The notes below the pieces were generated by a model. That model was not told the origin of the DNA and made no database searches. It was given only the letters and a program-made list of their open reading frames with translations. A stretch of DNA of 55,604 nucleotides from a virus (taxonomy: Duplodnaviria > Caudoviricetes), in the IMG/VR virus record IMGVR_UViG_3300004369_000019, positions 1-55,604 of that record, one strand, 5' to 3'. A program made the translations under genes and the position numbers. This document shows positions 25,129 through 45,200 of the stretch, piece after piece. Numbering within the stretch: the stretch's first letter is position 1; the number at the start of each line of letters is the position of its first letter.

Positions 25129-27633
25129 TTACGCAAGAGCTATAACTCGTAAGTCTCTCATTCTAACAGGATAAGTAGTATCTTCTGTAGTAGCAACTAA
25201 TTTTATTCCAAATGCTTTGAATGATGGTAGTTTATTAATTGAGAACTTAAACTCTTTGTATGTTAAATCTTCAGGTTTAAATCCAATAGAGTCTGTTAGT
25301 TTTACTTTTTTATCAGTTGTTCCATCACTTTTAGAAATATCAATTACTTCTCCCCTTTCATTCAAGTTTGCATACCCTGGGAAAGGATAATAAATCATTT
25401 CCTCTTTAGCTTCATCAGATATAGAGTAAAAAGCTCTTATATCACTTTTTGTGTTAACATATGCAGTCAAGAAAACTTGAATAGAAGTAGCAGGAGTTTC
25501 TAAAGCAATTGGTCTTGTAGCATAAACAAAAGCATGTGGATCGTTTTCTAAATCAGATGTTCTTTCATCTGTAATATAATCATCTATTGGTTTATTCATT
25601 CTATTTCCAATTAAAATGACCGAGCAACGATCCAAATCAATTACAGGAGAAAGAGTAGGAGTAGTTGTAGTTAAATTGACTGAAAGATTTAAAGACTTAT
25701 TTCCTTCAATTCCTTCAACTCCATCTAATAATTCTGTTTCATTAATTCTTGAACATATTATTCTTGGAGAACTGAGATATGTTTCTTCTGTTGTCGAGAT
25801 AGTTTCAAATTCAGTAGCAAGGAAAGATTCTTGATTACCACCAACACTTCTTCCAGTAATAGACCTCAAATTAATTTCAATATCAGTTCCAGTGAGTTCC
25901 GCAACTTTAATTTCTGGGTCAATAATTTCATATTGAATATTTTGTGTAGCATTTATATCATCTCCACCAGAAGACTTAGTTTCCCTAATAAACAAATCTG
26001 GATATCCGTCAATATTATTTGATCTATCAACTCCAGATTCTTGCATATCTATTTTTATATGATAGTAATCCAAATCTATTGGATTATCTACAGTTGCATC
26101 TTGCAATTCATGGGTCTTATTCAATCTTCTTAAAGAAATACCATTACATTCATACTTTACAACATCAACTCCTTTTTCATATTCAGATCCTTTAGTTCCA
26201 TCAACTTCTCTAATAATTCCTGTTAAAGTATTGCTACTAATTCCTGTATATCCAATAATTTCTTCTTCAATTTCAATATATCCTGGATTTGTAGAAGAAA
26301 CACCTACGTTTTCAAAAGTTGCAAATACGCTAAGTCCAGTTGTTTCATTAATTAACATATTCTCCAATTGAATTGGAGCCGTTGAATCTTCTAGAACATC
26401 AGCAGCCAAATCTACACTTGGATGATCAGCATCTACATCAGCGATAGTAACTACATTTTCCTCAGCATACATCCCATGATTGGGATGATTTACTTTTATG
26501 TGAAGTCCATCATGTATAATTGTAGAATCTGTTGTAAGCACACCACCACCATTCAAGGCTGTTACTATTCCACTAGAATTTTCATATTGAATAGTAGTTC
26601 CAGCACCAGTTAAGAATAATCCTTGAATATCATCTACTATGATTTCATTAATGTTTCCTAATTCGGAAACAGTAAGTCTTAAATTTCTACCTAAACCTGT
26701 TCCAACAGTATTTGCGGTTACGAGATCGCCAACTGCAAATCCAGTTCCACCATCAACAATAGTTGCTCCTACAGCAACACCATTTTGAATGGTTAAATTG
26801 CATGTAGCATTTTTTCCTAGTCCAGTAACTTTAGTTAATGGTACATCAAAATAAGTTAATCCGCCAGCAGAGGGAGTATATCCAATTCCAGCATTAAAAA
26901 TTGTTAATGAAGAAGCAGCTCCAGCATTTCCAATATAGTTACCAGCAGCATCACTACTACCTTGTTGAGAAACTGTAACTCCAGTTGTAAATCCTACATC
27001 GTTTATACCGGTGCTTAAAAGTAGTCTTTCCTGACGCGATTCAAACTCAAATGCATCTCCATCTAAAATAGCAATTTGTTGGTTTCCTAAATCAAGTTCT
27101 GGATTGTAAAAATTTATATTTCCAGAATTTTCTTTAAAGTTTGCCCTACTAAGAGTAAATTTTAAATCTTCAGTTTCGGATGGAGTCCAAACAGCTCCAT
27201 TTTGAGATCTAAAGAAATTTCCAGAGTTTGGGTTTGCTGATACAAAAACTCTTTTAGAAGTAGCATCATTCAGTTTTGTAACATCAGTGTCTCCCATTTT
27301 TGCAACCCAGACTGAATAGTCTTTACTGTTGCAAAGTAAAACAATTGCATGAAAAGTCTCGCCTTTTAAAAAAACGGGAGATGGAAATGTAAATCTAGTC
27401 GGTCCAGCAGCATCAGGAGACACAACAATTTCCGGTGGATTTAATGTTACTGAAGAAAATGGATATATGTCTGTTGCTGAAGGAAGTCCATTTACAGTTG
27501 GTCTCAACTGCAACGTCACAGGAGACGAACTATCTCCTTCATAAAAGAAAATATCAACAGATGTAGCAAAAATCCCCTTTGGATTATCTACATAAAATGT
27601 TTGTGCTAAGGGATCAATTAAACTATTTGCCAT
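25129..27633 (-). CDS. Virion structural protein, C-terminal part of a VrlC/DUF4815-type protein
   Basis: Begins DPLAQTFYV..GIFATSVDIFF, contains SQNGAVWTP...DLKFTL, ends RDLRVIALA. As I recall, these motifs form the C-terminal half of single large cyanophage VrlC-like proteins. Confidence 0.75.
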   Translation of the reverse strand: MANSLIDPLAQTFYVDNPKGIFATSVDIFFYEGDSSSPVTLQLRPTVNGLPSATDIYPFSSVTLNPPEIVVSPDAAGPTRFTFPSPVFLKGETFHAIVLLCNSKDYSVWVAKMGDTDVTKLNDATSKRVFVSANPNSGNFFRSQNGAVWTPSETEDLKFTLSRANFKENSGNINFYNPELDLGNQQIAILDGDAFEFESRQERLLLSTGINDVGFTTGVTVSQQGSSDAAGNYIGNAGAASSLTIFNAGIGYTPSAGGLTYFDVPLTKVTGLGKNATCNLTIQNGVAVGATIVDGGTGFAVGDLVTANTVGTGLGRNLRLTVSELGNINEIIVDDIQGLFLTGAGTTIQYENSSGIVTALNGGGVLTTDSTIIHDGLHIKVNHPNHGMYAEENVVTIADVDADHPSVDLAADVLEDSTAPIQLENMLINETTGLSVFATFENVGVSSTNPGYIEIEEEIIGYTGISSNTLTGIIREVDGTKGSEYEKGVDVVKYECNGISLRRLNKTHELQDATVDNPIDLDYYHIKIDMQESGVDRSNNIDGYPDLFIRETKSSGGDDINATQNIQYEIIDPEIKVAELTGTDIEINLRSITGRSVGGNQESFLATEFETISTTEETYLSSPRIICSRINETELLDGVEGIEGNKSLNLSVNLTTTTPTLSPVIDLDRCSVILIGNRMNKPIDDYITDERTSDLENDPHAFVYATRPIALETPATSIQVFLTAYVNTKSDIRAFYSISDEAKEEMIYYPFPGYANLNERGEVIDISKSDGTTDKKVKLTDSIGFKPEDLTYKEFKFSINKLPSFKAFGIKLVATTEDTTYPVRMRDLRVIALA

Positions 27634-27667
27634 TTATTTTACGTGAGACACATCTTAATAGTTAACT

Positions 27668-27919
27668 TTATTTATTCTTTAAAGTATCTATTTCTTTTTT
27701 TAACTCTTTTATACACTCAACCAAAACCGGTATCATCTGTATATAATCAACAGACAAATACCCATCTTCCTCATAAACCATCTCTGGAAATTCTTTTTTA
27801 ACTTCTTGGGCTATGAGTCCGTGCTCATAGCCCTTTCTTCCATGATATTTTACCATTTTATCATCCCACTCATAAAACATACCATTCAATTTACACACTT
27901 TATTCAAAGAAGAAGTCAT
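27668..27919 (-). CDS. Stand-alone peptidase S74 chaperone body lacking the catalytic Ser/Lys segment
   Basis: ATG at 27919 (or TTG at 27931): SLNKVCKLNGMFYEW...HGLIAQEVKKEFPEMV...LSVDYIQMIPVLVECIKELKKEID. Collinear with the S74 domain of the 731-aa fibre but without SDxxLK. Confidence 0.82.
   Translation of the reverse strand: MTSSLNKVCKLNGMFYEWDDKMVKYHGRKGYEHGLIAQEVKKEFPEMVYEEDGYLSVDYIQMIPVLVECIKELKKEIDTLKNK
27669..27675 (-). promoter_or_regulatory. Late promoter ATAAATA
   Basis: Overlaps the stop of the S74 fragment gene, upstream of the 27633 start. Confidence 0.55.
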
Positions 27920-27927
27920 AATATAAT

Positions 27928-30900
27928 TCAAATTCTAATCAATCTATTTAGTGCATTTCTAATAATCATAATGTTTGTCTTCAGTAAGAAGTCAGACCTT
28001 CTTCCTCTTCTTCCACCTCCTCTTTCACCTCCTCTTCTAGCAGGTCTACCTCCCGGACGTGGTGGACGTGGAGCAGGTCTTGGTCTAGGTCTTGGTGCAG
28101 GTCTTGGTGGATAACCACTTCCTAATGCTCTTCTCCTATTTGCGCTTGGTGCTGGACTTGGTGCTGGTCTTGGACGTGTTCTCCGTCTTGGTGGTGTTGG
28201 TCTTGGATGATACTTCTTAATACTTCCTCTCTTAAGTGGAAGTTTATTGATGGGGAATCCTTCTCCTTTCTTCTCAAATTTCTTCTCACCACGCTTGGTA
28301 ACTTTCTTAGATGCCTTTGGATGCTGTGTAGCAATTAGAGTTGCTCCATACTTCCACAATTGAGGTTCACCCTTATTGTAGAATCCATAATCTTTATCCT
28401 CTGGTTTAATTATATCAATTCTATTACTCTTCACACCCTTCTTCTGAAGTTTTCTTGCCTTCTTAGTGGTATCAATTATAACCATTTCGCCATTTCTCTT
28501 TTGACGAACTGCAATTGAAGTTGTCTTTTTTTTACCTCCTATTGGTCTTGCAGGTTTTCCTCTACCAGGATACTTCTTAGGGGGAAGTGGATATCCTTCT
28601 GCTTTAAATGCTTTCTTAGCGTCTTTGTTTCCTCCTCTTTCCCTAATCTGGTCAAAAGTTAAATATCTAGTTTTACCTTTGTTTTTACCTTTTTTAATTG
28701 TATAAGGAACATACCAAACAGGAAGTGCTTTTCCTTTCTTATCAAAGACGTATTTAACTTTAGCAGTTTTAATCTTTGGTCTAGGTCTCTTGCCTGAAGG
28801 CGGTGTAGGTTGAGGATCTCCTGTAGGATTCCCTTTGTTAGGGAGATTCACTGGAGGAAACGGGTCTTCGTGGGGTTTTGGCTCCTCCGGTGGTGGTGGT
28901 GGTGGTGGTTTCCTCTTGTTGTGAGAAAGTAGACCTTCTGAAATATAAGTATGAGCACCTTCAACTGTGATATGAACAACTGGTCCATTTTCAACAGTTT
29001 CAATACTCTTCAATGTTTGTCCAGAAACTTCATCACCGACTTCCATGTCTCTGGCTTCTTTCCAAGAGTCACCAACACGGAACTTGTGGTAAATTGAACA
29101 AGTTATTTCACTTTCACTAAAGATTAACTTGAGTTTTTCAACATCTTCTACAATAGAAGCATGAATGACTGGATAATCGCCATATTCAAAAGTATCTTCA
29201 TGATATGTTTTGACCATATCACCGACTACCAGATCTCCTGCTCTCTTCTGAGAACCATCGTGCATTAAAATTAATGCATTAGGATCTGGACATACCACCG
29301 GGGGTCGTGGGCGAATCGGGTCACCGCCGCCATCGGGACCTGGATCAATAGGATCAGGTTCTGGAACAACTGGATATTGTGGTCTTTGAGGTTGTGGACC
29401 TGGTGGTTGTGGTCTCGGTCTTGGTCTAGGTCTTGTAGGCTGAGTGGGTACGCCTGGTCCTCTTGGTCCTGGACGAGGACGTGGATCTGGTTCTGGTCTT
29501 GGTGGTTTTGGTTTTTTCTTAGTACACTTGAGAAGAACTTTTGGATCACCAACTTCAGCGATAGGAAGTAAAGTACATTTCCGACTCTTAGGAATTTTCC
29601 ATCTTCTAACATAGAATCTTTTCGCAACATCACTACCAACGCAAGTAAATTGATCTTCTGCTGCGGTTGTTATTTCACCTTCTCTTTCACTATTAGTTGG
29701 TGAGTCAACTAATCTAAAAGTTTTAACTCCAGCCGTAAATGTACGCCCAAATTTATTCTTTCTTACACCATCTGCCTTTGGTAGGAAGAAGTTTCCTCTT
29801 AATTGACCATTTTCGTCAGTAACAAATTTTTTATTAACAATTTTACATATTGCTTTACTTGTCTGACCCTTTAACTTCATTCCAGCGCCAGTAATAAATC
29901 CCCAATACTTTCCTTTAGACTGTAAAGTCATGATAAAAGTATCAATATTCAATATTGTAGAATTTGATGCGTAACTAGTAGGCATCAAAGTCTGACTATA
30001 TGGATTTACCCTATAGAATTTTGTTGGTGCATTAAAAGGTCCATCCAGATGATTTATCTTACATACTCTAGAAGAAAATCTAGTATGATGTCTCCAGCCT
30101 CTTATGGCCTTCATTTGAACTTTTCTTTTTCTTACTTTAATTGCAAGTGTATTATGGACTCTAAATCTTCTTCTCTTAGCAGCAATAACTGTTTCCCCAA
30201 CTTGGAAAGTTCCCTTAACCATTTGTATTTCTAATAGTTTGGGGAAAGAAGTATTTGATACTGGAATATCATCAAAGAAAGGATATACCCTTGTAAAGGG
30301 TTTCATTTTGACGGCTCTAAATTCAATATTCCGCATTCTCATCCATTTGCGGAAAGTTACAGATACAAATCTTGCGCCAACTTTTACTCTCTTAGCCCAG
30401 AATGGGTTTTTAATCGGAACTGCACCTATTCCATCTTTATTAATTTTAATTTTTCTCTGCCCAAATATTCTTTTTCTTAATCTCTTTCTATCACCTTTTC
30501 TGTTTGGTCGATCTCCTTTAACTTTATCGCCTCTTCTATCTGGAACACCTTTCCAATGATTTCTCCAATCTCTCCAAGTAACTCCACCCCAACCCCAATT
30601 GGGGTTGTTTTTCATTTTCCTCATTTGTCGATTGGTAAACCAGTATTTACCTCTTCTATTATTAAATCCTACACAACCACCTCTATTTTGTTGAACCCAT
30701 GCATCGGTTTCTGGTTGAAGCGTAAGTTCTCCCTGATAAAATATATCGACAATAGTATTAATTGGAACGTTCTGTGTTGCATATGGTTGTACAATTTCAA
30801 CTTGCTCATCATAGTCTAATGTGATTACTCTTCCAGTTTTTCTAACACCTTCACCAATTAAATTAGAATCATATTCTGGATCCAAATTAACAGAATCTAC

Positions 30901-33900
30901 TACATCTGTTCCAATTCCAAGATTATTAAATGTACCTAACTCTAAATCAATTTGAGTTGTATAAGGAGCGGCTCTTAATTCTCTCTTTTCAGTATCAACA
31001 GAGTTTTTATTAATTGTAATTTTTAATTGATTTTCTGCTGTAGAGAAATCATCAACAAAGAAACCAGATTTAAATCTATCTAAACCTGTAACGGAGTCTG
31101 TTACCTTAAGAGCAGCCGTGCTACTCTCAAGCATACTTAAAGAAGTATAATATTCAAGTTTTTTAATACGATCTTCAAGATCTCCAATATCATCCATACT
31201 GTAGCGTTTATATTCCGCTACTTCAATTCTTGCATCATCAACGTCTTCTAAGAAAGCTGGTAATGAAATAGTAGCAATTTCAATTGCATTTTCTTTTGAT
31301 GCAGGAACAACTGGTTCTTCTGCTGCAGCTCCCTCCACATTGTGGAAAACACCAGTTTCATCCAAGAAAATTTTATCAACTCTTGGAAGGAAAAATTCAT
31401 AATCTATAACTATTAATTCATCTGATGCAAGAATATGTTGTGATGAATTTCCATCTCCATCAAAAGATCTTCCAAAGAATTCAAATGGTGAGCGTCCACC
31501 TTCAACGACATTATACGCATCTACTCTAGGTCTTAAATCAATAATGTCAGCATGTCTGATTTCATCAGTTTCTGGAATATCCTTATACTTGAAGTTTTTA
31601 TAAGAATTTACAGTTGTAATATCTCCAGTATCTGCAACACCATAATCAGCATAAGAATATAAAATTTTTAACTTTCTCTTTGATGGTTTAACATCTTTTT
31701 TTCTCTTTATATAAGCATAATCATAAATTGTATCTCGATATCCATCTTCTAGCTCATATTTATCAGTTACATTATTATCAGCACCACTTAGTTTTACTAC
31801 TGTAGCAGTTATTTGACTATCTTGAAAACCAATATTTTCTCCTGCTTCAAATGAATCGTCATTTATTAGAACATATGAAATAGTAGTATCATTTACTCTT
31901 TCAATTACCATTCCAATTGCTTCGGATTTAGCACCTTGAAATCTTTCTCCAATAGCAACATCTCTTGTAGTATTTGTTATTCCTCCGATATTAGATAATT
32001 CTAATCTTAGAATATCCGGTTCATTAGTATCATCAGACTCATAGATAGCTAATACATCTGTAACATCAGGTCTAAATAAACAAATTTCTTCATCTTGAAC
32101 ACGAGTTCCATATGGATAATTTCCATATGTTAGACCATCATTTATTGTTGTTGATCCTATTCCAGAACCTCTATCTCTAGACTTATCAATTACAATACTA
32201 CCAACTTTAGTAATAATCTTTACTTTATTTTTTAGATTATTCTTTGTTAGTGTTGCTAGTAATTTTCCTGTTGTATTTGAACCTAAACCTTTAATTGTAA
32301 CTTGTGTAAAATCAGAAGAAAAATCAAATTTATCTTCAGTTAATTCTTCTATAGAACCATCGTCTCTAGTCAAGATATATCTTGATGGATTGAATGGTAA
32401 GAAAGCGCGATCCGTTCCTGCTTGTATTGCAGCAGTCACATTATTGGTAATAGTTACGTCAAAAACTTCTCTGATATCTATAGAAGACTCTACAAGATCT
32501 ACATTACTAACATAATCTTTCGGAAGTTCTGTGTATAGTTTTGCTTCTTCATCAGATCCTTCTAGTCCTTCCTGGAATTTTGCCTGAATCTTTTTAAAGT
32601 CAGATGGAGTAATTTCACTTGTTGGTAGAGAACCTTGATTAATATCTGTAACAGTGGTTATACCACTAATTCTCATGTTAGTTTTTGCTACAGCAGTAAC
32701 CTGAGAATAAGTTATTAATTCTGAATTTTGAGGATTTGTATAAGATACATAATCTCCTACATCAAATATCTTATCTAAATTTACAGTTGCTGAACTTACT
32801 GTAGAAACTCCACCAACTGCTGTTGATATGGAAACTGATCCAATTACATCATTTGTAGCGAATAGTTTAGTATCCGCGTTAAAATACGTTCCATTGGAAT
32901 TTGTTCCATGAACAGATCTAACATTGCTTATACCAAATTCTGTTGATTTTTTAACAACTCTTGAATTTTCTTCAACGCCGTTAAAAATTAATTTTTCACC
33001 AACATTAAATCTTCCATTTACATCATATACAGTTGCAATTCCAGAATTACTAACATCAAATCTTAAGTGTGCTATCGATCCAGTAGCTTTTCCTTTTATA
33101 TGAATTGGAGTTGTTAATGTAACTGGAGCATTAAGTTCCAATTCTACATATGGTCTAACGTCATATAATGCTAAATCGAAGACATTAAGATCCAAATTAG
33201 TAGCATCATATGAACCATCTTCTAATTCATAATCCCATACTCTAGCAACTCCAATTTCTTTACCTGCTGCAATAGTTTGAGCAGTTCCTACTCTTTCATC
33301 TCTAAGTGTAACATAAAAACTTGTTTGAATTCCTATAGTTGGATATCCATATACTCGATTTAATTGTAAAGTAGGTCCAGTATTATACTTTATCTGCTGA
33401 TCTAGTAGTTTTTTAGTTGTTCTTGGTTTTTTAAAATCTAGATATGTTGGAGTTGGAATTTCAGTCTCAAATCCATTTACATATGCTTTTAATGGAGAAA
33501 TTTTATAAACTCCAAGATCGTCATCTGGTTGTTGACCTTGAATTGTAGTTTGTCCTTGATCATAAACTCCATCATTTCCTTCTTTATCATTCAAGGATTC
33601 TAAGACATCGATATCCGGAGCGGCAACATAAAAATCTCCAGCAATATCATCTACTATTTCCGCTAATCTCTTATCAAATTCTGTTTGCTGAGCACTTCTA
33701 TTTCTATTAACTACTTCTCCATTGATAACTTCCATGATCTGAATGAAGTTTTCAAGATCATCGTTTTCATCTAAATCTATTTTTACCAGGTCAATATCTA
33801 TCTTAAATCGATCTGCTCCAGGTGCTGTGAAATTTGAAAATCCCTGAGCGTTATCTAAAAGGTTTTCATCATCAACATACGTTACAATTTCTTCATTAAC

Positions 33901-34629
33901 TATAAATCCAATTTTATATGTTGGTTGGTCATCATATTGATCTAGTAATAATGTTTTTTCTTCACATTCTACAAAATGACCTCTAATATAATAAACACCT
34001 TCATTAATATGAACAGCAGATCCTATTTCGTTTGGGTTTGTTGAAATGCACTGAAGGACAGGATCTAATGAATTAAAAATAATTACATTTGATAGATCTT
34101 CTTGAACTGCTGCATTTGGATCATCATTTTCAAATTCTTCTGCTAAGTTATTCGTGGTTTGGAAACCATCTTCAGTTAAAAGTACTTCTCCGGCAGTAAA
34201 ACCTGTAAATGATTTTGTTGATGCATCAGAACTTAGGTATCTAATATAAAAAGTATGTAATCCTCTCTCAGAAGTTGTTGCTGGTTGATAAGAGTCAATT
34301 TTAGCTCTAATTCCAGATGTTTGACCAACAATAATCTCACCAACAAGATCGGCAGCATATTCTAGAATTCCTTTTCCGTTATAAGTTTCTTCAACGATAA
34401 CGCATGGATATTTCTCATAATATTGAACTTCACCACCAGAAATTGCTCTACCTTCTTTAAAAAAATGATCTCCAAACTTTTCAATCTGAGATTGAAGTAT
34501 TGACTGGAGAGTTGTTAGCTCTCTAGCCTGAATTGGATAACCAGGTTTAAATAGGACGCGATAAAAATCATCGTCCCTGTCAAAATCATCATAATAAGGA
34601 GCGGTATTTAAGTTAAATTCCTGTGGCAT
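27928..34629 (-). CDS. VrlC/DUF4815-type virion structural protein with C-terminal Hint domain, basic cargo and S74 N-fragment
   Basis: N-terminus NLNTAPYYDDFD....YRVLFKPGYPIQARELTTLQSILQ.Q; APGADRFKI; YSM.DIG.LEDRIKKLEYYTSLS; DRFKSGFFVDDF. Follows gp8. Confidence 0.85.
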   Translation of the reverse strand: MPQEFNLNTAPYYDDFDRDDDFYRVLFKPGYPIQARELTTLQSILQSQIEKFGDHFFKEGRAISGGEVQYYEKYPCVIVEETYNGKGILEYAADLVGEIIVGQTSGIRAKIDSYQPATTSERGLHTFYIRYLSSDASTKSFTGFTAGEVLLTEDGFQTTNNLAEEFENDDPNAAVQEDLSNVIIFNSLDPVLQCISTNPNEIGSAVHINEGVYYIRGHFVECEEKTLLLDQYDDQPTYKIGFIVNEEIVTYVDDENLLDNAQGFSNFTAPGADRFKIDIDLVKIDLDENDDLENFIQIMEVINGEVVNRNRSAQQTEFDKRLAEIVDDIAGDFYVAAPDIDVLESLNDKEGNDGVYDQGQTTIQGQQPDDDLGVYKISPLKAYVNGFETEIPTPTYLDFKKPRTTKKLLDQQIKYNTGPTLQLNRVYGYPTIGIQTSFYVTLRDERVGTAQTIAAGKEIGVARVWDYELEDGSYDATNLDLNVFDLALYDVRPYVELELNAPVTLTTPIHIKGKATGSIAHLRFDVSNSGIATVYDVNGRFNVGEKLIFNGVEENSRVVKKSTEFGISNVRSVHGTNSNGTYFNADTKLFATNDVIGSVSISTAVGGVSTVSSATVNLDKIFDVGDYVSYTNPQNSELITYSQVTAVAKTNMRISGITTVTDINQGSLPTSEITPSDFKKIQAKFQEGLEGSDEEAKLYTELPKDYVSNVDLVESSIDIREVFDVTITNNVTAAIQAGTDRAFLPFNPSRYILTRDDGSIEELTEDKFDFSSDFTQVTIKGLGSNTTGKLLATLTKNNLKNKVKIITKVGSIVIDKSRDRGSGIGSTTINDGLTYGNYPYGTRVQDEEICLFRPDVTDVLAIYESDDTNEPDILRLELSNIGGITNTTRDVAIGERFQGAKSEAIGMVIERVNDTTISYVLINDDSFEAGENIGFQDSQITATVVKLSGADNNVTDKYELEDGYRDTIYDYAYIKRKKDVKPSKRKLKILYSYADYGVADTGDITTVNSYKNFKYKDIPETDEIRHADIIDLRPRVDAYNVVEGGRSPFEFFGRSFDGDGNSSQHILASDELIVIDYEFFLPRVDKIFLDETGVFHNVEGAAAEEPVVPASKENAIEIATISLPAFLEDVDDARIEVAEYKRYSMDDIGDLEDRIKKLEYYTSLSMLESSTAALKVTDSVTGLDRFKSGFFVDDFSTAENQLKITINKNSVDTEKRELRAAPYTTQIDLELGTFNNLGIGTDVVDSVNLDPEYDSNLIGEGVRKTGRVITLDYDEQVEIVQPYATQNVPINTIVDIFYQGELTLQPETDAWVQQNRGGCVGFNNRRGKYWFTNRQMRKMKNNPNWGWGGVTWRDWRNHWKGVPDRRGDKVKGDRPNRKGDRKRLRKRIFGQRKIKINKDGIGAVPIKNPFWAKRVKVGARFVSVTFRKWMRMRNIEFRAVKMKPFTRVYPFFDDIPVSNTSFPKLLEIQMVKGTFQVGETVIAAKRRRFRVHNTLAIKVRKRKVQMKAIRGWRHHTRFSSRVCKINHLDGPFNAPTKFYRVNPYSQTLMPTSYASNSTILNIDTFIMTLQSKGKYWGFITGAGMKLKGQTSKAICKIVNKKFVTDENGQLRGNFFLPKADGVRKNKFGRTFTAGVKTFRLVDSPTNSEREGEITTAAEDQFTCVGSDVAKRFYVRRWKIPKSRKCTLLPIAEVGDPKVLLKCTKKKPKPPRPEPDPRPRPGPRGPGVPTQPTRPRPRPRPQPPGPQPQRPQYPVVPEPDPIDPGPDGGGDPIRPRPPVVCPDPNALILMHDGSQKRAGDLVVGDMVKTYHEDTFEYGDYPVIHASIVEDVEKLKLIFSESEITCSIYHKFRVGDSWKEARDMEVGDEVSGQTLKSIETVENGPVVHITVEGAHTYISEGLLSHNKRKPPPPPPPEEPKPHEDPFPPVNLPNKGNPTGDPQPTPPSGKRPRPKIKTAKVKYVFDKKGKALPVWYVPYTIKKGKNKGKTRYLTFDQIRERGGNKDAKKAFKAEGYPLPPKKYPGRGKPARPIGGKKKTTSIAVRQKRNGEMVIIDTTKKARKLQKKGVKSNRIDIIKPEDKDYGFYNKGEPQLWKYGATLIATQHPKASKKVTKRGEKKFEKKGEGFPINKLPLKRGSIKKYHPRPTPPRRRTRPRPAPSPAPSANRRRALGSGYPPRPAPRPRPRPAPRPPRPGGRPARRGGERGGGRRGRRSDFLLKTNIMIIRNALNRLIRI
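27945..27951 (-). promoter_or_regulatory. Candidate late promoter CTAAATA inside the 3' end of the 2233-aa gene
   Basis: 26 nt upstream of the 27919 ATG, the same spacing as other late promoters in this window. Confidence 0.5.
28918..29292 (-). other. Hint / bacterial intein-like (BIL) domain, 125 aa (C1780-N1904)
   Basis: Block A CPDPNALILMHDGSQKRAGDLVVGDMV; block B ITCSIYHKF; W.EARDMEVGD; blocks F/G VVHITVEGAHTYISEGLLSHN. Residue +1 is Lys; no endonuclease domain. Confidence 0.9.
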
Positions 34630-36219: not shown

Positions 36220-36226
36220 TATTTAG
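36220..36226 (-). promoter_or_regulatory. Late promoter CTAAATA
   Basis: Overlaps the gp7 stop, upstream of gp8. Confidence 0.55.
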
Positions 36227-39200
36227 ACGTTATAATTAAGTGATTTTAAAGGATTCTTCCTTCTTAACATTGGAGAAGTATTAATACCTGTAACTCCATT
36301 ATCTCTCTTAATATTGTATACCTCTGGATAAGGTCTAACAATATTATCAAGTCTTCCCCAAGAGAAAGTTCCAAATGTTTGTCTAGAGAGGAATGAAGTA
36401 ATTCCTAAAGACTCATAAGTTTCAACAACAGTAACAACTTTTGTATTAGTATCTATGATCAATGTTGCATCATCCGCAACAGTAGTAGATACTCCAAATC
36501 CAATTGAATATGATCCATACCTTGTTAAACTCGCAATAAAGTCATCGCTAAGAACAATTATAGGAATATCTGTTGCAATATCATGAACTTGGTATACATT
36601 ATCAATATAATCTTTACCATCCACTAAATCAGAACCATCTGTTTCAATAGAAGTCAATCCAGCACCAGATATTCCAATGATTGAATCTCTGATAACAAAG
36701 TAATCTCCCGTTCCAATACCACTGTAGATAATTGTATTTCCACTTCCAACAATACTTTCATCCTTTAATGGAGAATTTTCTGGAATTGAGAATTCAAAAA
36801 CTAAACCTTGCGAAGACCCAGCTCCAATAGTTGTTGTTCCAACACCAATAACTTCACCAAAATCACCAGCATAATCAACTCTAAAGACAGTTTCTGATCT
36901 TGGAGTTGGTGGAGAAATTAGAACTGCTGGTGGATGGTTATCATCATAACCAGTTCCTCCTGCAGATACAGTAATAGTTGTTAATTGCCCAGAAGCAATA
37001 GCAGCAGAAGCTGTTGCTTGATCTCCACCATCTTCTACTGGTTTTCCTATAGAAATAGTTGGAATCTTGAAATATCCACTACCAGTATTTGTTACTGTAA
37101 TTTGGGTAACAATACCTGCTGTAACAGATGCAGTAGCTAATGCTTCTGAGGTATCATCTTGATCAATAATATCAACAGTGCTTACATATAAATCTGTTGT
37201 GTTTTCTTTTTGGTTATCAAAGAATGTTTTTACACCTTCAATCCATATTTGAGTGCTTGCTGCACCAACATCATAAATCAATGTAGTTAATGGAAGTATA
37301 GATGCTTCATAGATATCTCTATCTTTAGTAATTTCTTGACCATCGATGATAGCATCGGATGTTGCTCGACACCAGTTAACTGACCTTTCTATAAATGGAT
37401 CATCACTAATTCCAACACCACCATATAAAAATGTATCTACAGAATCCGTAGAAGTAACTTCTTTTACAGAACGGTCAGTCTGATCGAGATCTGGTTCATC
37501 ACTGAGCATTGTTAAAAGATCTCCAGCAGATACTGTCTCTAAGATATCTACAAATTCAACATCAATATCTCCAGTTCCTTTATAGAATAGAATCTTGCAA
37601 GAATCTCCTAATGCAGGAGCTTCAGTGAATCTAATAGTACTTCCTCCTGGGAACAAGTAAGCTTCTCCAGGAACTTGAAGAACGTCATTGATAAAAACAA
37701 GGAGAGTTGCTTGAACGTCGATTAAAGATCCTTTTCCTGCTTTAATTGATGTTCTAACACCATTGAATTTAATTGCAAATCTTGTTTTTTCTCCATTAAA
37801 TTGATCACTGATATCATCAATTACATCAAGATCTCCAATAGTCCATCCAGTAAATTGGTCAGTTTCAGTTTTGGTAATATAGAAATTGAACTCATTAAAA
37901 TCTAATGTTGTTGGTAACGTTAAAGTTGGTTCAGCGGAAGGAGATTCAATTACCGGAGCATATGCAGATCCATCACCAATAATTGTGGTAATAATTCCAA
38001 CTAAGTTATAAATTGAAGATGCAACATCAGAACAGCAGTCCACACTATAAGAAGGACTGCAATCAGTATCATAATCAATTGTAGTATCTGTATACTGAGT
38101 AACCGATACTGCTATTCCTTGATATGATACTGGTAAAATTTGATTGTTTATAACGTATGTTGAAATACCAGCAAGATAATCATATGTTGCAATAGTTTCT
38201 GTAGTCTCTCCGGTAACATAGTTTAGTGGTCCATTCCAATACTTATTACCAGCTGCAACAGAATTAAAGTTTCCGCCAAAGAAGAGATCATTTGCTAAGG
38301 CATCAACAATATATCCAGTGTCTCTTTCGCACTTAGTTTCATCGTAATCTGGGTTAGAAAGTAGAGAAGGATATGTAGCCGTTGCATATCCAACAGCTTC
38401 TTTAATCAAGAATTGCCTATTGTAAGCAAGGAGATTTCCAGCATCAGCAAATCTTCCATGATACATGTAAGGAATTCCATCTGTTCCACCAACAGAAACT
38501 GTTAATACATTGTTGATTTCATATCCATATCCAACATTTTTTATTTCAAAGTCAGTTACACTAGATCCTTCTCCAACAACAACACTAACCTTTGCAGCTC
38601 TTCCTCCAGTATCTCCAATTGAAGTTGTGGAATATGTTGTAGCAAGATTATCATATGGAAGAGGATCATCAAAGTCCACTGTAAAGTATTTTTCAACCTT
38701 ACCGCCAGAACTATAAGAGTAAGAATCTGTAGTGACTCCAGTATTAACTTCAAACTCAGTACCACTATTAACTGCTCTTACACTTAAATATTCTATTATG
38801 GGACTATTAATAATTTCTCCCACTCCAGAAAGAACAACTTCATTACCAACAGATAATCCATGTGCAGTAGATGTTGTAACTGTTGTTAACCCAGTTGTTG
38901 TAGTATGACCAACAGTAGATATATCTCTAGGAACATAGAATACATCAGAATTTGTAACAGCTACTCCAGTAACTCTTCCTCTAGTAACAAGAGCAGTTCC
39001 TATTGCAACTTTACTGGAGGATTCTACAGTTTCTTCGCGAATATAAACTTCGATATTGGTTTGAATTCCAGTTCTATATCCACCACCAACATTAGAAATG
39101 TTAATCGCACTGATAGTTCCTGCAGAAGAAACTGTAGCGGTTCCAGCAGCAGAAACTAACGATTGATATCCAAATCCTTTGGTAGATCCAACAGAAACAA

Positions 39201-42200
39201 TTCTTCCACCAACAGGAAGACCCTTGATAATAATATCATCTTCTCTATCATATTCACTTTCATCAAATATGATATTTGTAGACCCACCACTTTCTTCTAA
39301 AGTATAGTTTCCTTCAATATCAACATTAGACTGATCTACTTTAGGTGACTGGAAAAGATCGTTTACTGTGATGATAGCATTACTTGCGGAAATTCCATCA
39401 ATACTTTGTCCACCAACTTTTAATTCAAAAGAACTTTGAATTCCAGTAAATTGATCTTCAATTCCATCAAACACATAGTTTTTATAATATGGATCATTTG
39501 TTGTATCAACATCTGCATTTCTCATGAAAGTTCTTCCACTAAATCTAGAGAAAGTTGTAATTCCCGTATAATCTCTTTGATCTGGACGGTTATCTGGAAG
39601 CCCAACTGGTGTTTTTCCATATGGAGCATCAGCGAAACTAATTGTATTATCAACAATATTATAGTTACCAATGATTTTGGTCATTAAATCATACTGTCCA
39701 TGATTCGCCAACTTTGTACCAAGAACTGCTCTCTGAACGTAAATATCATTATCAGATCCACCATATCCAACTATGGTGACTCTAACAATTTCATCATTTA
39801 TTTGTAGAAAATCTCCAGTGAAGAATTTCTCTGGTTCTGAAACTATAGTAAGAACATCTTCGACTGTAGTAAATCCGTTAAGAAGAGATGTAGTAGTAGC
39901 TGTAGATACAATCGGAGACTGTATCATATTATCAATGGTTACTAAAGATTTAGGATTTTGATTTTTTGCAGTTATATAGTGTTCGGATCCAACACCAACA
40001 CTTATAATATCAAGGGGTGTTGGTCTTAATGCTAAAGCATCTGTAGCAGAAGCGGCTACTTTAACCAGCAGTTCATCTTCTTTGATTATGAATAATGAAG
40101 AAGGTAACTTATCAGTGCTTCCTATTCCTGGAATTGTTGTGGTAGCAATTCCAATTGGTTCATTTGTAGAATCATAAGAATATATGACTTCCTCTCCAGT
40201 TACAAAGAAATGCTGAGGTAATTCAATAGTGTTTTCTGTTACACTAGTAATAGCAATGTTAGATCCATCAAATTCTTTCTGGAAAATTGGATTACCTTTA
40301 TGGAAAAGTTCAAAATCTCTCTTAATTTCATTTTGAGTTCCAATGTATTCTGAGTTACCAGTTAATATCTCACCATTAGTAAGATTAATTTCAGTTACAT
40401 CATTTGAAAGATCTCTTATTCCGATATGATGTGCATACACTCTAACTTCAGCATCAATTGAAGATCCTGCTGTAAAATAAATGTTTGTTACTGTTCCTGC
40501 AACTCCTGCAGTAACTATACCAACTTCGCTATCAGTAAATAATTGACCAAATTCTGTATAATAAGCTGTTGTTGCTGTAGATGCAACAACTACCTCAGAA
40601 AGTTGATATTTTTGATTCGTGTTATCATCAATACTAACAATATAGTAACCACTACTGTAATCATTAATTCCAGTAATACCATTATCATAAGAAGCAATAA
40701 TATTTCCTCCTGTACTTTCTGTGCTTGCTATAGATGTGAAAGTAGATTCAATGAGTGTGGTAGACATATTGGTCTCACCAGGTGTTGTAAATCCAGACTC
40801 TGAGGAAGCCAAGGATACTCTCATAACATTAACATCTGCATTCAATAACACGTTAGGAATAAGGTCAACTTTAATATTTGATCCATCAATGTATGCATTG
40901 TATGTTCCTATTCCATCAGTAGAATATTCTGTTAAAGTAGTTGTTAATTGACCATAATCTTGAATAGTAACGTCAGATCCATCATGAATAACAGAAATTT
41001 CATCAAATTCATATACTTGAGTACTATCTTCTACTTGAACAAGTAATTTTGAAGATCTATAATCTAATGGTATGGTTGCAATAGTTGTTGTTGCTCCAGA
41101 AGAAACTGAAGAATTTTCTAAGTAAACAGTAGCAACGTTTCCAAATACGGTTGATCCAATTCCTGATGTATAATCATCGATGTTATAAGTAACAAAGCTT
41201 AAATCATAATCATTGACCAAATATTTGTTTGGATAGAATTTGAATTGACCTTCATCCTCAAAAATAGAGAAATCAAAAGATCCTAAGTCTCCAACTGTTT
41301 CAACTCTTCCGTATTGATTGACATAGAAATTGTTATCATCATGTATGGTTGTTACGATATAAACTTGTCTTTCTCCAGTAAATCTACTATCTCTTGAGAA
41401 TACGATGTATTTTCTAGCTCTACTATCTGCAAGTTTAAAATTATCAATTACACTAAATCTATCTGATCTTGGTTCACTGTTAAATTGATCGCTAATATCA
41501 TCAATAATAAGAACTCTATTACCAACAGATTTATTAAAATCTTGAAGTTCTCTGCTATTGAAAACCATTCCGGTTGAGAATCTCTTCGATCCAATTAAAG
41601 TTGTCTCATCAACAACAATATCAAAATCATAAACACAATTTGTATTTACAACTCTACTGAAATCTGCAACAGAAACAAAATCTCCTCCATCTTGCGATGT
41701 CGATATTCCTGTATAAGAAAGATCTCTAGACTCTATACTGTAATCACTAAATCTCTTCCATCCAACAAGGTGATTTAATCTTCCAACTTCGTCTTCCCAA
41801 ATATTTTCAGAAACTGTACTTTGAATACTGTAAGAGAAGTGCTGATAATAGTCACTATCATGAATCTTATATTCATTGTAATTAAGGAATCCTTTAGTAT
41901 CAGTCCACTCTTTAGTAATTATAGCAGAAGATCTAATATCATAATAAAGTTCTGTTAATTGAATATCATTAATTTTACCAACGGTTCCACTTTTTGCTCC
42001 TTCGACATCTTCATTAAGTTCAAATGTTTGTTGTCCAAAATATTTTAATACTTCTGATCCAGAATCATATCTTTGGACTTCTCCTTTAGATCCTGTTGTT
42101 CTTCCTGTTATTATTTCTCCAGGTATAAATTCATTTCTTTTTGTTTTTACAACAAATGTTGGGAAATATACTTCAGGAACAACAATTCCTGTTGCACTGA

Positions 42201-45200
42201 TATCATCATATTCTCCAAGAGTTTCTACACTTCCAACAACTGGAGACATATCAAATTTTATGGATCCAAGAGATCCTCCGAAGTTTGGATCTATTTCTGT
42301 TATTTTATATAATGAATATTCAAAATCAGAACTATTGAAAGATCTTCCAGAACTTCCTAAAGTTTTTGAAGCACATCCTTCGATTAAAACCTTCTTACCA
42401 ACTTCAAATGGGAAATCAAAACCAGCACTAAAACTAGTCTTGAATGTTAAAGTAGCTATTTTAGTAGAATTATCGAAAGTCAAAGATTTGATACTAAATC
42501 CATTTGAGTTATTGGTTGGAATTATTTGTGGAGTATTATTTGATAATTCGTTTGTATTTTTAACTATGAATACAGATCCACTTAATTCATATTTTAATAT
42601 AAGATCTGTTAGAACTTTATTTGATGCTGTATCCTTTACGATTAAATCTGGAGCAACAGTATAGTTAATTCCTGATGTTTCTCTAGTGATTGTATCAAAA
42701 GAAAGTTTTTGATCAAGAATTAATACATCTGGAAGTTTAGCAGTTGGCTTTAATGTAACATCTGTTGGATAATCCCAACCAACATCTTCAGTTTTAAATA
42801 CTTTTTTACCACCAATCGAATCAGTTACAATTCTAACCTTTGCTCCAGATCCTGTTTCAGTTGCAACCGTGACTATTCCAACAATTGATTTATATCCAAA
42901 TCCACCATTAGCAACATATACATCGTGTATTGGTCCAGTTGCATTAATAGATCTTGTAACATAATTCAAAGAAGAATCTGTAGATGTAAAAGAAGTTATT
43001 CCTGGATAAGATCTGGGACTATCATAAACAAAAGAAGATGTGGAAGTAGAGACAACAACATGACCACCAGATAGTCCTTGCTCTGTTATCTCTATTTGAC
43101 CTGGATTTTGAACTCTGTAGGAATCAACTATAGAACCAGACTTTAATTCTGAAATTCCTTTAACTTCTTTAGGACTTAATACATAATATAAAAATCTTGG
43201 AGTTAGTCCGTTTACAGTTATTTCAACTTTAGCATCATTATCAACACCTATCCGTCCAGTTTGTTTAACAACAAAATTTCCAAATTGATCTGTAATATAT
43301 TCGTTTTGATAAGATGAATCTGTATAAATTTTAAAATCAAATGCAGTTAGTTGTGTAGTTCCATCAACATACGAGAGAGATGAATCTCCTAAATTAAATC
43401 TTATTGTTTTGTCTCGATTAACTTTTAATTTGGGATGAACAGTTCTCAAAAATACATTACCTGCAGTAGAAAATCTTATTGTGTTTCCGAGATTGCTAAT
43501 AATAGTTGTCGTTCCAAGTCCAACAGCTTGATCATAATATTCATAAAGATTAAATTTATTTCTACTTACATATTCTGTAAAATAGAATTTGTCTTTAAGA
43601 AGATCTGGAGTATCTGTAAATTGCACAAGCACCTTATCACCATCTTCAAAACCATGATCTTCAACAGTTATTTCATTGGTTGATGTATTAATTCCTGCAG
43701 ATGGTATGAATACTTGATTAACTAAGGTTCTCTTAGTTGCATCATTATAATAAACATCGAATTCTTCAACCCCACCTGGTCTTATGAATATTCTAAATTT
43801 ATCTCCAACTTCCATACCATGAGTTTCTGCTGTAGATACAGTAACTCTGGACTTAGATACTTCTAAAGGCATGAATTCAAAAGCTGTCTTAAAGCTATGA
43901 TTTTCCCCTGTACCTAATCCAACAAAATACAATAAATCTACATCAATATCAGTTCCAGCAACACCAACATATGACTGATCATATCCTGGTTTTGTTATTG
44001 TGGAAATTCCAATTTCATTTGTAGATATTCCTATTAAATCTTTTGTTAATCTTACAGCAAATAGTGATTGACCATCACTGAGATGAGTAGATCCAATACC
44101 TGTAGTTGATACTGCTAGAGGATCTCCAGTATTTGAATAGTATATTAATTCATCATTAGTCTGTATACCATGACCTGGAAAATATAATGCTCTAGTTGGA
44201 ATATTTAAATATGTTGCTCCAGATCCAGGATTATTAAAATACAAATTAGTAGTTATTCCCGTTCCTGCTGTCGTTCCAATTCCAACTGTTTCTTCTGGAT
44301 TAAAATAAATCTCTCTATTTACTGTAGAAAAATCACCTAAGTTTAAACTTATTTTAAAATGAGTTGGTAAAATAGTTGCTTTATTTTCCAATGAATGTGC
44401 AGATCCAACTGTACCATCATGCTCTCTTAAAACTCTTAATCTAGAATTTTTCTTATCTATATTAAGAATTTTCATTTTTTCATCATTTATAATAAAAATA
44501 TCATTTGGATATACCGAGACATTATTTTCTTTAATAGGAAAATAAATTACAGGACCAGTAGTAGCAGCATCCGCAATATCTCTTGTTAAAGTAAAAATTT
44601 TATTTTCGACAATAACAGCAGCTTGAGTATCTACAGCAATTGCAGATGCCGTAGATACTCCAACAACATCTACAAAATTATCATTAGTCAGTCCATGTTC
44701 TTGCTCACAAAATATAATTGTTTTACCATTAGCAACTTGATATCCTTGAGCTACTGGTATATACGTTTCCGTAACAGCTAAAGAAGTTATAGTTTTTCCT
44801 TTAATTTCGGATACAAAAGCAACAGCTCCTGTTCCACCAGTACCCACATTATCTACAAAAGAAATTGGATCTTTTACTTTGTAATTATCTCCGGAATCTA
44901 AAACATCTATATCATCAACTGATCCAGCAGAAAGATCAGTGATTTTTGAAAAATGAGCATCAAATTGATTTGGTTGGATAAGATACTCATATCCACTATA
45001 CCATTGTTTTAAATTATATGGAGTTACATTTCTCCTACATCCATATTCTTGAAAATCAAATTCAACTTGATTTGTATCTTTTGCAGTATTATAGTTAAAA
45101 AGTATTGGAGTGTATTCAAAATCGTCTCCAACTATATAAGGAAAAGCTGGGAGTTTGTTTTGTGAAAATTGACCTTCCGCTTGGACGATTTCACCTATGG

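Follow-up and report, generated by a model that had tools for sequence, protein, structure and literature searches.

The window, by which the whole analyzed stretch of 55,604 nucleotides (nt) is meant, is a 55.6-kb fragment of the virus record IMGVR_UViG_3300004369_000019 (Duplodnaviria; Caudoviricetes), with an estimated completeness of 26%. An open reading frame (ORF) of 2233 amino acids (aa) on its minus strand specifies a baseplate protein in which a Hint domain is followed by a strongly basic (cationic) module and by the beginning of an S74 intramolecular chaperone domain. Comparative analysis shows that this Hint domain, together with its own lysine at the +1 position, is a discrete mobile cassette which has recently been exchanged between phages with far more diverged flanking genes, and comparison of orthologous protein sequences shows the cationic module to behave as a resident part of the baseplate protein rather than as a payload brought by the Hint domain. 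It is, on balance, likely that the Hint domain is a self-excising passenger resembling the bacterial intein-like (BIL) domains and lodged in a tolerant linker, with the cationic module resident and a designed release of a polycation improbable. The features of the ORF on which the argument draws are as follows, with the basis of each assignment in parentheses (AF2, AlphaFold2; pLDDT, predicted local distance difference test).

27928 to 34629, minus strand: giant ORF, 2233 aa, with VrlC-type (DUF4815) N-terminal and middle parts, then linker, Hint, cationic module and S74 head (ORF list, translation, Pfam)
29293 to 29469, minus strand: hypervariable Pro-rich linker before Hint, residues 1721 to 1779, 39% Pro (composition; not alignable between orthologues)
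28918 to 29292, minus strand: BIL-like mini-Hint, 125 aa, C1780 to N1904, with key residues Cys1, S1845xxH1848, H1893 and H1903-N1904 (profile searches, AF2, Foldseek)
28915 to 28917, minus strand: codon of the +1 Lys, K1905, part of the Hint cassette (DNA identity block ends at AAG(A/G))
28762 to 28914, minus strand: variable Pro-rich linker after Hint, approximately R1906 to A1956 (alignment; AF2 pLDDT <50)
28216 to 28761, minus strand: conserved core of the cationic module, approximately K1957 to Y2138 (kept in Hint-bearing and Hint-less orthologues)
27997 to 28215, minus strand: Pro/Arg-rich linker ending in RRGRRGRR, residues 2139 to 2211 (composition, alignment)
27931 to 27996, minus strand: S74 intramolecular-chaperone head, first 22 residues, with S2212 and K2217 in an SDxxxK motif, then TGA at 27928 to 27930 (in-register alignment)

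Mobile Hint cassette and resident cationic module

Between the window and three related loci (L001, L006, and L008), the Hint-encoding DNA is 94 to 95.5% identical (91 to 94% at third codon positions), compared to 64 to 65% for the upstream module and 74.5 to 75% for the core of the cationic module. Accordingly, synonymous divergence (dS) between the window and other phages amounts to 0.13 to 0.16 in Hint versus 1.1 to 1.8 in the flanks. The block of high DNA identity opens at the first base of the Cys1 codon (TGT) and closes at the +1 Lys codon, and the sequences outside it are not alignable; because the block has exactly these edges, the moving unit is considered to extend from Cys1 to the terminal Asn plus the Lys. 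Metagenome contigs are consistent with these edges: two studies have runs in which likeness to the window is lost at 29292/29293, and in one of the two it resumes at 28913. Among the sequencing runs listed as containing this DNA, none is of RNA.

Orthologous linkers were found to hold zero, one, or two copies of the Hint domain. A tandem arrangement, with the two Hints 45 residues apart, is present at L007:2005-2910, in the same linker that contains a single Hint in the window and none in L003. Ten viral-contig loci reach the end of the gene, six with and four without Hint, a sample that represents fewer independent cases, since L001 is near-identical to L002, the tree shows no difference among L003, L004, and L005, and the copy at L010 is near-identical as well, with a frameshift. 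The tree of the flanking modules requires at least two gains or losses of Hint, its deep support being weak (81/55 and 84/87). No metagenome contig joining precisely across the Hint domain, as expected of an empty site, was found. Joints that skip approximately 1,300 bases were taken as spurious, their sides comprising only 21 to 22 letters in Pro/Arg codon repeats.

A search with residues 1760 to 2233 retrieved 22 proteins, of which 16 possess and 6 lack a Hint domain (P0003 to P0007 and P0009). The six Hint-less proteins, out of nine close orthologues, retain the same C-terminal module, the Pro/Arg linker, and the RRGRRGRR-SDxxLKTNI tail, and the module core is under purifying selection, its ratio of nonsynonymous to synonymous substitution rates (dN/dS) being 0.12 to 0.17. 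Because the module and tail are conserved in orthologues that lack Hint, release by Hint cannot be the purpose of the module.

The segment K1905 to R2211 (307 aa) consists of 28% Lys plus Arg and 18% Pro, with an isoelectric point (pI) of 11.3 and a net charge of +66, in agreement with the highly cationic character ascribed to it by a first-pass annotation of this DNA. The charge is, however, not confined to the stretch behind Hint but begins at approximately residue 1321: net charge is +126 over residues 1321 to 2233 versus -101 over residues 1 to 1320. The 2233-aa ORF specifies the only basic protein among the window ORFs of at least 250 aa. All the remaining large virion ORFs of the window have an acidic pI (4.1 to 6.3), and the region homologous to residues 1321 to 2233 is neutral in the lineage of P0008. 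The basic C-terminal third (residues 1321 to 2233; 27928 to 30669, minus strand) thus looks like the outcome of a lineage-wide cationization and not like a local feature.

The AF2 model of the cationic core contains two small subdomains, at approximately residues 1956 to 2014 (pLDDT about 87) and 2037 to 2074 (about 72), amid disordered K/R/P-rich sequence, with an overall value of 54.6. For this module, Pfam, NCBIfam, and PHROGs returned no family match and the ESM Atlas nothing usable; Foldseek produced no match at an E value of ≤1e-3, the VIA wide search a best Z of 3.2, and a word-index search at near lengths only three fragments. When 50,697 phage records were searched by tblastn, the Hint part alone was matched, with 27 to 31% identity to inteins, and blastn returned nothing. 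In the post-Hint linker of P0002, P0004 to P0006, L001, and L006 to L008, a Cys-flanked basic loop, C-R-R-K-G-K/R-G-K-R/K-R/K/G-C, is conserved; it is absent from the protein of the window.

The first-pass annotation had viewed K1905 to R2211 as a cargo with an autoproteolytic site at each end, on the model of a polymorphic toxin: cleavage between N1904 and K1905 by Hint and between R2211 and S2212 by the S74 Ser would free a 307-aa polycation acting as an effector, a DNA or membrane binder, or a scaffold. Both motifs are indeed present with conserved catalytic residues, and both cuts are chemically conceivable in Hint-bearing alleles; furthermore, small, very K/R-rich proteins with two Hints exist (P0023 to P0026), and behind the same Hint, P0010 and P0013 carry other C-terminal regions. 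Such a purpose-built release nevertheless appears quite improbable. The module and its tail occur without Hint in the six close orthologues mentioned above and at four of the ten loci, the module is conserved and not polymorphic, and the Hint DNA is some ten times younger than its flanks, so that Hint represents a recently transferred cassette and not a co-evolved delivery device. The second autoproteolytic site also falls away as first described, the S74 domain being incomplete in the chain and able to act only with a separately encoded 83-aa protein. No toxin or immunity signature was detected: the Pretoxin-HINT family (PT-HINT, PF07591) scores below its cut-off (20.8 versus 27.7 bits), the sole toxin-family match was to Tox-URI2, at 13.3 bits (cut-off of 20; E value of 0.11), and what comes next is a gene for the S74 remainder, not an immunity gene. 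A survey of homologues for varying cargos, as had been suggested, did recover different sequences behind Hint in other proteins, but among orthologues the module is conserved.

Anatomy and relatives of the Hint domain

The 125-aa Hint domain between Pro-rich linkers, its +1 Lys, and the His in its F block correspond exactly, in coordinates and residues, to the first-pass description (codons of C1780 at 29292-29290, N1904 at 28920-28918, K1905 at 28917-28915, and R2211, the last residue of the basic segment, at 27999-27997). The catalytic-site residues are present, namely, Cys1, S1845-x-x-H1848 of block B, His1893 of block F, and the S-H-N of block G (His1903-Asn1904), while position F:4 is occupied by His1886 where Asp is usual. 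The NCBIfam model TIGR01443 (intein_Cterm) is matched with 18.6 bits, above its cut-off of 15.6, and the Pfam family Intein_splicing (PF14890) with 25.6 bits, below its cut-off of 35.8. The AF2 model of the domain (pLDDT of 94.1) yielded 66 Foldseek matches in the Protein Data Bank (PDB) at an E value of ≤1e-3, those listed being without exception inteins, BILs, or hedgehog domains. Ranks 1 to 4 are occupied by BIL2 of Tetrahymena (best E value of 5.4e-11, TM score of 0.79) and rank 5 by the BIL of Clostridium thermocellum (2LWY; E value of 1.5e-9), followed by mini-inteins. A family profile placed a mini-intein, BIL2, and 2LWY (E value of 5.7e-8) within one order of magnitude of each other, and the best single-sequence match in the PDB was BIL2 (E value of 1.2e-4). 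By profile and predicted fold, C1780 to N1904 is a genuine HINT domain. Its sequence lacks none of the residues on which the N-S acyl shift and Asn cyclization depend, and it is probably catalytically active.

Hint relatives were identified in 855 representative proteins at an E value of ≤1e-3 (323 at 1e-10 and 53 at 1e-30). Residue statistics were obtained from a local profile search of 170 proteins, covering 170 domain ends and 155 domain starts. Cys1 is found in 154 of the 155 starts, and SHN closes 162 of the 170 domains, another xHN being present in seven more; an alignment of 37 Hint rows shows no variation at the His of block B or at the penultimate His. The dN/dS ratio of the domain amounts to 0.12 to 0.21, which, like the constancy of these residues, speaks for catalytic activity. 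Position F:4 is filled by His, Lys, Val, or Phe in the relatives. It is conceivable that the Hint is dead, i.e., a noncatalytic globular spacer kept within the linker of the mature protein, given the missing F:4 Asp, the lack of a +1 nucleophile, and the tolerance of such linkers for large insertions and deletions. This is considered very unlikely, as a spacer would not hold Cys1 and the terminal xHN so nearly constant across clusters of ≤50% identity.

The +1 residue is Lys in 141 of the 170 domains and in all 16 Hint-bearing proteins matched by residues 1760 to 2233; Cys, Ser, or Thr is found in 3 of the 170, and the remainder mostly carry an aliphatic residue followed by Lys at +2. Because there is no nucleophile at +1, canonical splicing is not expected, and the frame of BIL-type cleavage or ligation put forward in the first-pass annotation holds, BILs being the nearest solved structures. 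BILs, which lack a +1 nucleophile, mostly cleave (PMC7664689). Among the properties that define class 1 inteins, the HINT fold, Cys1, the (T/S)xxH of block B, and the C-terminal His-Asn are found here; K1905 stands in place of the +1 Cys/Ser/Thr, and a conserved insertion site with a precise intein-less allele is lacking. The properties of BILs that are seen include intein-like terminal motifs without a +1 nucleophile, location in a variable region with variable copy number, and the closest solved structures.

Among known systems, the BIL of C. thermocellum resembles the present domain in its HINT fold, N-terminal Cys, C-terminal His-Asn, absence of a +1 Cys/Ser/Thr, variable region, and variable copy number; that BILs occur in variable regions, present in some cases and absent in others and in differing copy number, was reportedly described by Amitai et al. 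in 2003. Unlike bacterial BILs, the domain resides in a phage baseplate protein and not in a bacterial secreted protein, it travels with a near-invariant +1 Lys, and its DNA bears the signature of recent lateral transfer. Class 1 mini-inteins such as Spl DnaX (7CFV) and the cyanophage-like gp41-1 (6QAZ) share its size, fold, blocks A, B, F (His), and G, its passing TIGR01443 score, and its mobile behavior, but differ in that the present Hint has a +1 Lys, occupies a hypervariable linker instead of a conserved active-site region, occurs in tandem copies, and falls below the Intein_splicing cut-off. With Pretoxin-HINT, it shares a position upstream of C-terminal regions that differ between proteins, the differences being the subthreshold score, a downstream module that is conserved and also present without Hint, and the absence of toxin and immunity genes. 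Within the partial literature coverage of this study, no account of a Hint or intein-like domain in VrlC or cyanophage structural proteins was found.

For BIL2 of the BUBL1 locus of Tetrahymena thermophila (6Y75 and 6TMM), the best structural match, isopeptide bond formation through a Lys epsilon-amine is reported (PMC8616854), and this amine acceptor parallels the +1 Lys here. By analogy, the amine of the +1 Lys could attack a Cys1780 thioester, as could a Lys in a neighboring virion protein; the product would be a rejoined, possibly isopeptide-branched chain or a covalent cross-link within the baseplate. The prevalence of Lys at +1 or +2, the inclusion of the Lys codon in the transferred cassette, and the rank of BIL2 (closest by structure, tied for best by sequence) are in keeping with such Lys-directed ligation, through which Hint-bearing and Hint-less orthologues would yield equivalent mature proteins. 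Ligation by BILs without nucleophilic side chains is said to have been described by Aranko in 2013. The similarity to BIL2 is, however, modest (21% identity), with mini-inteins scoring about equally; BIL2 is eukaryotic and flanked by ubiquitin-like domains, and the Lys here is a putative nucleophile only. In the 17 of 170 Hints that lie near a protein end, ligation would add only 1 to 5 residues, and the Lys may merely assist Asn cyclization or be a neutral scar. Lys-directed ligation is, on these grounds, regarded as unlikely.

The Hint domain is found in several other contexts. The 17 terminal Hints just mentioned lie ≤6 residues from the protein C terminus (e.g., in P0076, P0131, and P0157), with endings such as SHNK-stop and SHNIK-stop, a hedgehog-like architecture in which a C-extein of 1 to 5 residues still contains Lys. 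Two or more Hint rows were detected in 23 proteins. P0023 to P0026, which are 475 to 612 aa long and extremely K/R-rich, each carry two Hints by eye, with a common YVSTLR ending and, in three of the eight Hints, an insert of approximately 30 aa after an HE(K)DL motif. Their appearance is that of basic peptides strung together as a polyprotein, with Hints between them. In P0011 to P0022, which correspond to the back part of VrlC, Hint is preceded by approximately 100 residues, and DNA of this type has VrlC broken in another linker with Hint close behind the new start codon. In P0013, Hint lies upstream of a DUF4214 region, and in P0010 it precedes a different basic tail. Seven of the 80 VrlC loci examined contain a Hint, many of these loci being cut short upstream.

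The VrlC host gene and its split S74 domain

All large genes of the window are carried on the minus strand, and the gene set corresponds to a T4-type baseplate-to-neck module comprising gp6, a 4324-aa giant, gp8, the 2233-aa ORF, an 83-aa ORF, an 834-aa ORF, a neck protein, and gp15. Synechococcus myoviruses are the closest named relatives (gp15 is 58.6% identical to that of S-SM2). The 4324-aa ORF (36223-49197, minus strand), located between gp6 and gp8, occupies the slot of the gp7-like giant, a baseplate wedge subunit in S-SM2, an assignment made by synteny only. Two features follow the 2233-aa ORF.

27668 to 27919, minus strand: 83-aa ORF, S74 remainder (PF13884 positions 13/14 to 58, scored at 31.5 and 32.5 bits; cut-off, 22)
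25129 to 27633, minus strand: 834-aa ORF, VrlC C-terminal part (phrog_358 positions 1421 to 2055 of 2056, E value of 7.5e-173)

The 2233-aa ORF matches DUF4815 (PF16075) with 179 bits against a cut-off of 30, is preceded by gp8 in the same order as in S-SM2, and is approximately 40% identical to the "VrlC/structural protein" of Synechococcus myoviruses. Its residues 1277 to 1779 match phrog_358 positions 1072 to 1383. In S-SM2 (L012), VrlC is specified by a single gene of 2519 aa, whose C-terminal ending matches the end of the 834-aa ORF of the window. These comparisons show the 2233-aa ORF to be the front two-thirds of a baseplate protein of the VrlC type, carried by an uncultured T4-like myovirus of marine origin whose nearest named relatives are in the Synechococcus Kyanoviridae, and show that a single VrlC gene has been broken into three ORFs of 2233, 83, and 834 aa in the lineage of the window (25129-34629, minus strand). 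VrlC is described as a component of the double-layered baseplate in cyano- and pelagimyophages (PMC7029224).

The likeness to VrlC/DUF4815 of cyano- and pelagimyoviruses thus lies in the N-terminal DUF4815, the place after gp8, and the coverage of phrog_358 (1072 to 2055) by residues 1277 to 1779 plus the 834-aa ORF, while the window version differs in its three ORFs, its linker, Hint, cationic module, and S74 extension, and its strongly basic C-terminal third. As phrog_358 coverage jumps from position 1383 to 1421 between the ORFs, the linker, Hint, cationic module, and S74 pieces sit in a gap of the VrlC family. The lineage-specific extension consists, in order, of the hypervariable Pro-rich linker, a K/R-rich module of approximately 180 to 260 aa, the Pro/Arg linker, the 22-residue S74 head with its stop, and the 83-aa S74 remainder. 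In another metagenomic lineage (L019 and L020), the break in VrlC falls in a different linker; 16 nt further on, a new ORF opens with a leader of approximately 117 aa and a Hint. As the linker that is broken differs among related phages, an unbroken chain across these linkers is evidently dispensable.

An S74 site with its Ser was claimed in the first-pass annotation, and a Ser-Lys head is present, but only 22 residues of the domain precede the stop, and the remainder resides in the separate 83-aa ORF. Aligned without gaps to the start of the window's own complete S74 domain, the head has 8 identical and 14 positive positions out of 22, a score reached by 0 of 5,000 shuffles. Pfam PF13884 had no match on the 2233-aa ORF, and BLASTP with the 27-aa tail, too short as a query, did not retrieve the complete S74 domain of the window. 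The 83-aa ORF begins at an ATG in another frame, 8 nt past the stop, and its first residues repeat approximately 11 domain positions; it matches the C-terminal ends of many PHROG tail-fiber families. In a PDB profile search, the S74 tail alone gave only low-complexity matches and the 83-aa ORF weak S74-type matches (E values of 0.24 to 0.42). A complex prediction with three copies each of the S74 tail and the 83-aa protein (score of 0.01, mark of 0.32) carries no weight either way.

The stop after the S74 head is kept in 10 of 10 loci and the stop-8 nt-ATG junction in 11 of 11 sequences, and all 14 S74-head tails of the window type among the relatives analyzed end within 30 aa. The S74-remainder ORF forms 23 clusters of 54 to 125 aa, most of 83 to 88 aa. 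A two-ORF S74 is also present, with a different frame offset, in the divergent P0008-type locus L063, which carries an extra 147-aa ORF (L063:9631-10071) between the S74 remainder and the VrlC C-terminal ORF that has no counterpart in the window. A programmed frameshift over the break was rejected given the constant junction and the other offset in L063, and a sequencing or assembly error was rejected given conservation of the break across loci. Compared to the canonical S74/endosialidase and tail-fiber chaperone, which forms one C-terminal piece, the present domain shares the SDxxxKxN(I/V) head with its Ser-Lys dyad and a remainder that passes PF13884, and it differs in being split over two ORFs with an overlap of approximately 11 residues. 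Ser and Lys are reported as necessary for S74 autocleavage (PMC7824862). No literature on a two-gene S74 was found within the partial coverage.

A 731-aa fiber-like ORF (1593-3788, minus strand) ends in a complete canonical S74 (1710-1868; 62.9 bits; profile positions 1 to 58), and hence this phage combines an undivided S74 with one in two pieces. A truncated S74 head of another type, SDIRLKTNIR.IGS.LNIVQ.YW.., which spans 25 aa before the protein ends, is found in P0028 and P0127; in P0028, it follows two adjacent Hints and a PPYY-repeat linker. As P0028 has both elements, the pairing of Hint with a truncated S74 recurs in an unrelated protein.

Proposed processing and its significance

It is proposed that, after translation, Cys1780 forms a thioester at the junction between V1779 and C1780, as would be expected from the conserved residues and from knowledge of BILs, and that Asn1904 cyclizes, cutting between N1904 and K1905, whereby the Hint cassette would remove itself. 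Cleavage at both junctions, as in characterized BILs, would be the main outcome, to which we give about an even chance; it would yield two chains, the VrlC body and the cationic C-terminal module, within a single assembly. As VrlC is split at such linkers in related phages, this two-chain outcome would be tolerable. Rejoining of the flanks via the K1905 amine is possible although clearly less probable, the isopeptide route reported for BIL2 being the bold version of this alternative. The cationic module itself would be resident in the baseplate protein, with a structural or binding role, and the S74 head and the 83-aa protein would most likely act together in trans as a trimerization chaperone.

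Several points weigh against a self-excising passenger in a tolerant linker. Its chemistry is inferred from sequence, and the Pfam intein and PT-HINT scores lie below their cut-offs. Since F:4 is not Asp and is variable, coupling of the two Hint reactions may differ from that of inteins. The near-invariant Lys at +1 (or +2) is not explained by a purely selfish cleaving element and hints at a specific role, and the pairing of Hint with extremely K/R-rich segments in P0023 to P0026 may leave room for an association between Hint and polycations. No function could be assigned to the cationic module. Finally, no homing endonuclease or other transfer vehicle for Hint was found, and an empty-site allele with sharp edges is not definable because the linker is unalignable.

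The components discussed here (BIL/intein, S74, and VrlC) are known; what appear to be new are a Hint family of phage virions with its own +1 Lys, its domain-exact lateral transfer into linkers, and a conserved two-gene S74. The last of these suggests that trans action is open to a chaperone called "intramolecular." Annotation, too, can draw on the present case: the cationic stretch and the S74 motif are not to be taken for a payload flanked by two sites of release. The usual view is that inteins parasitize conserved enzyme sites and that BILs are a peculiarity of secreted bacterial proteins; the large Hint family described above (855 representative clusters) has its place in structural proteins of marine phages, where it occupies flexible linkers, and it is seen as a single copy, in tandem, or at protein ends. 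The cassette makes testable both the role of a non-nucleophilic, invariant +1 residue in HINT chemistry and the manner in which mini-Hints spread, and it may serve as a compact self-cleaving or ligating tag. In a bolder and, in our estimation, improbable version, the Hint and its Lys would constitute a Lys-dependent, ATP-independent viral protein ligase or splicing element, with the baseplate protein rejoined by an unusual, possibly isopeptide bond or covalently cross-linked to a partner, in the manner of BIL2 and ubiquitin-like domains in Tetrahymena; were this true, the cassette would spread between phages because its chemistry renders it harmless wherever a flexible linker exists.

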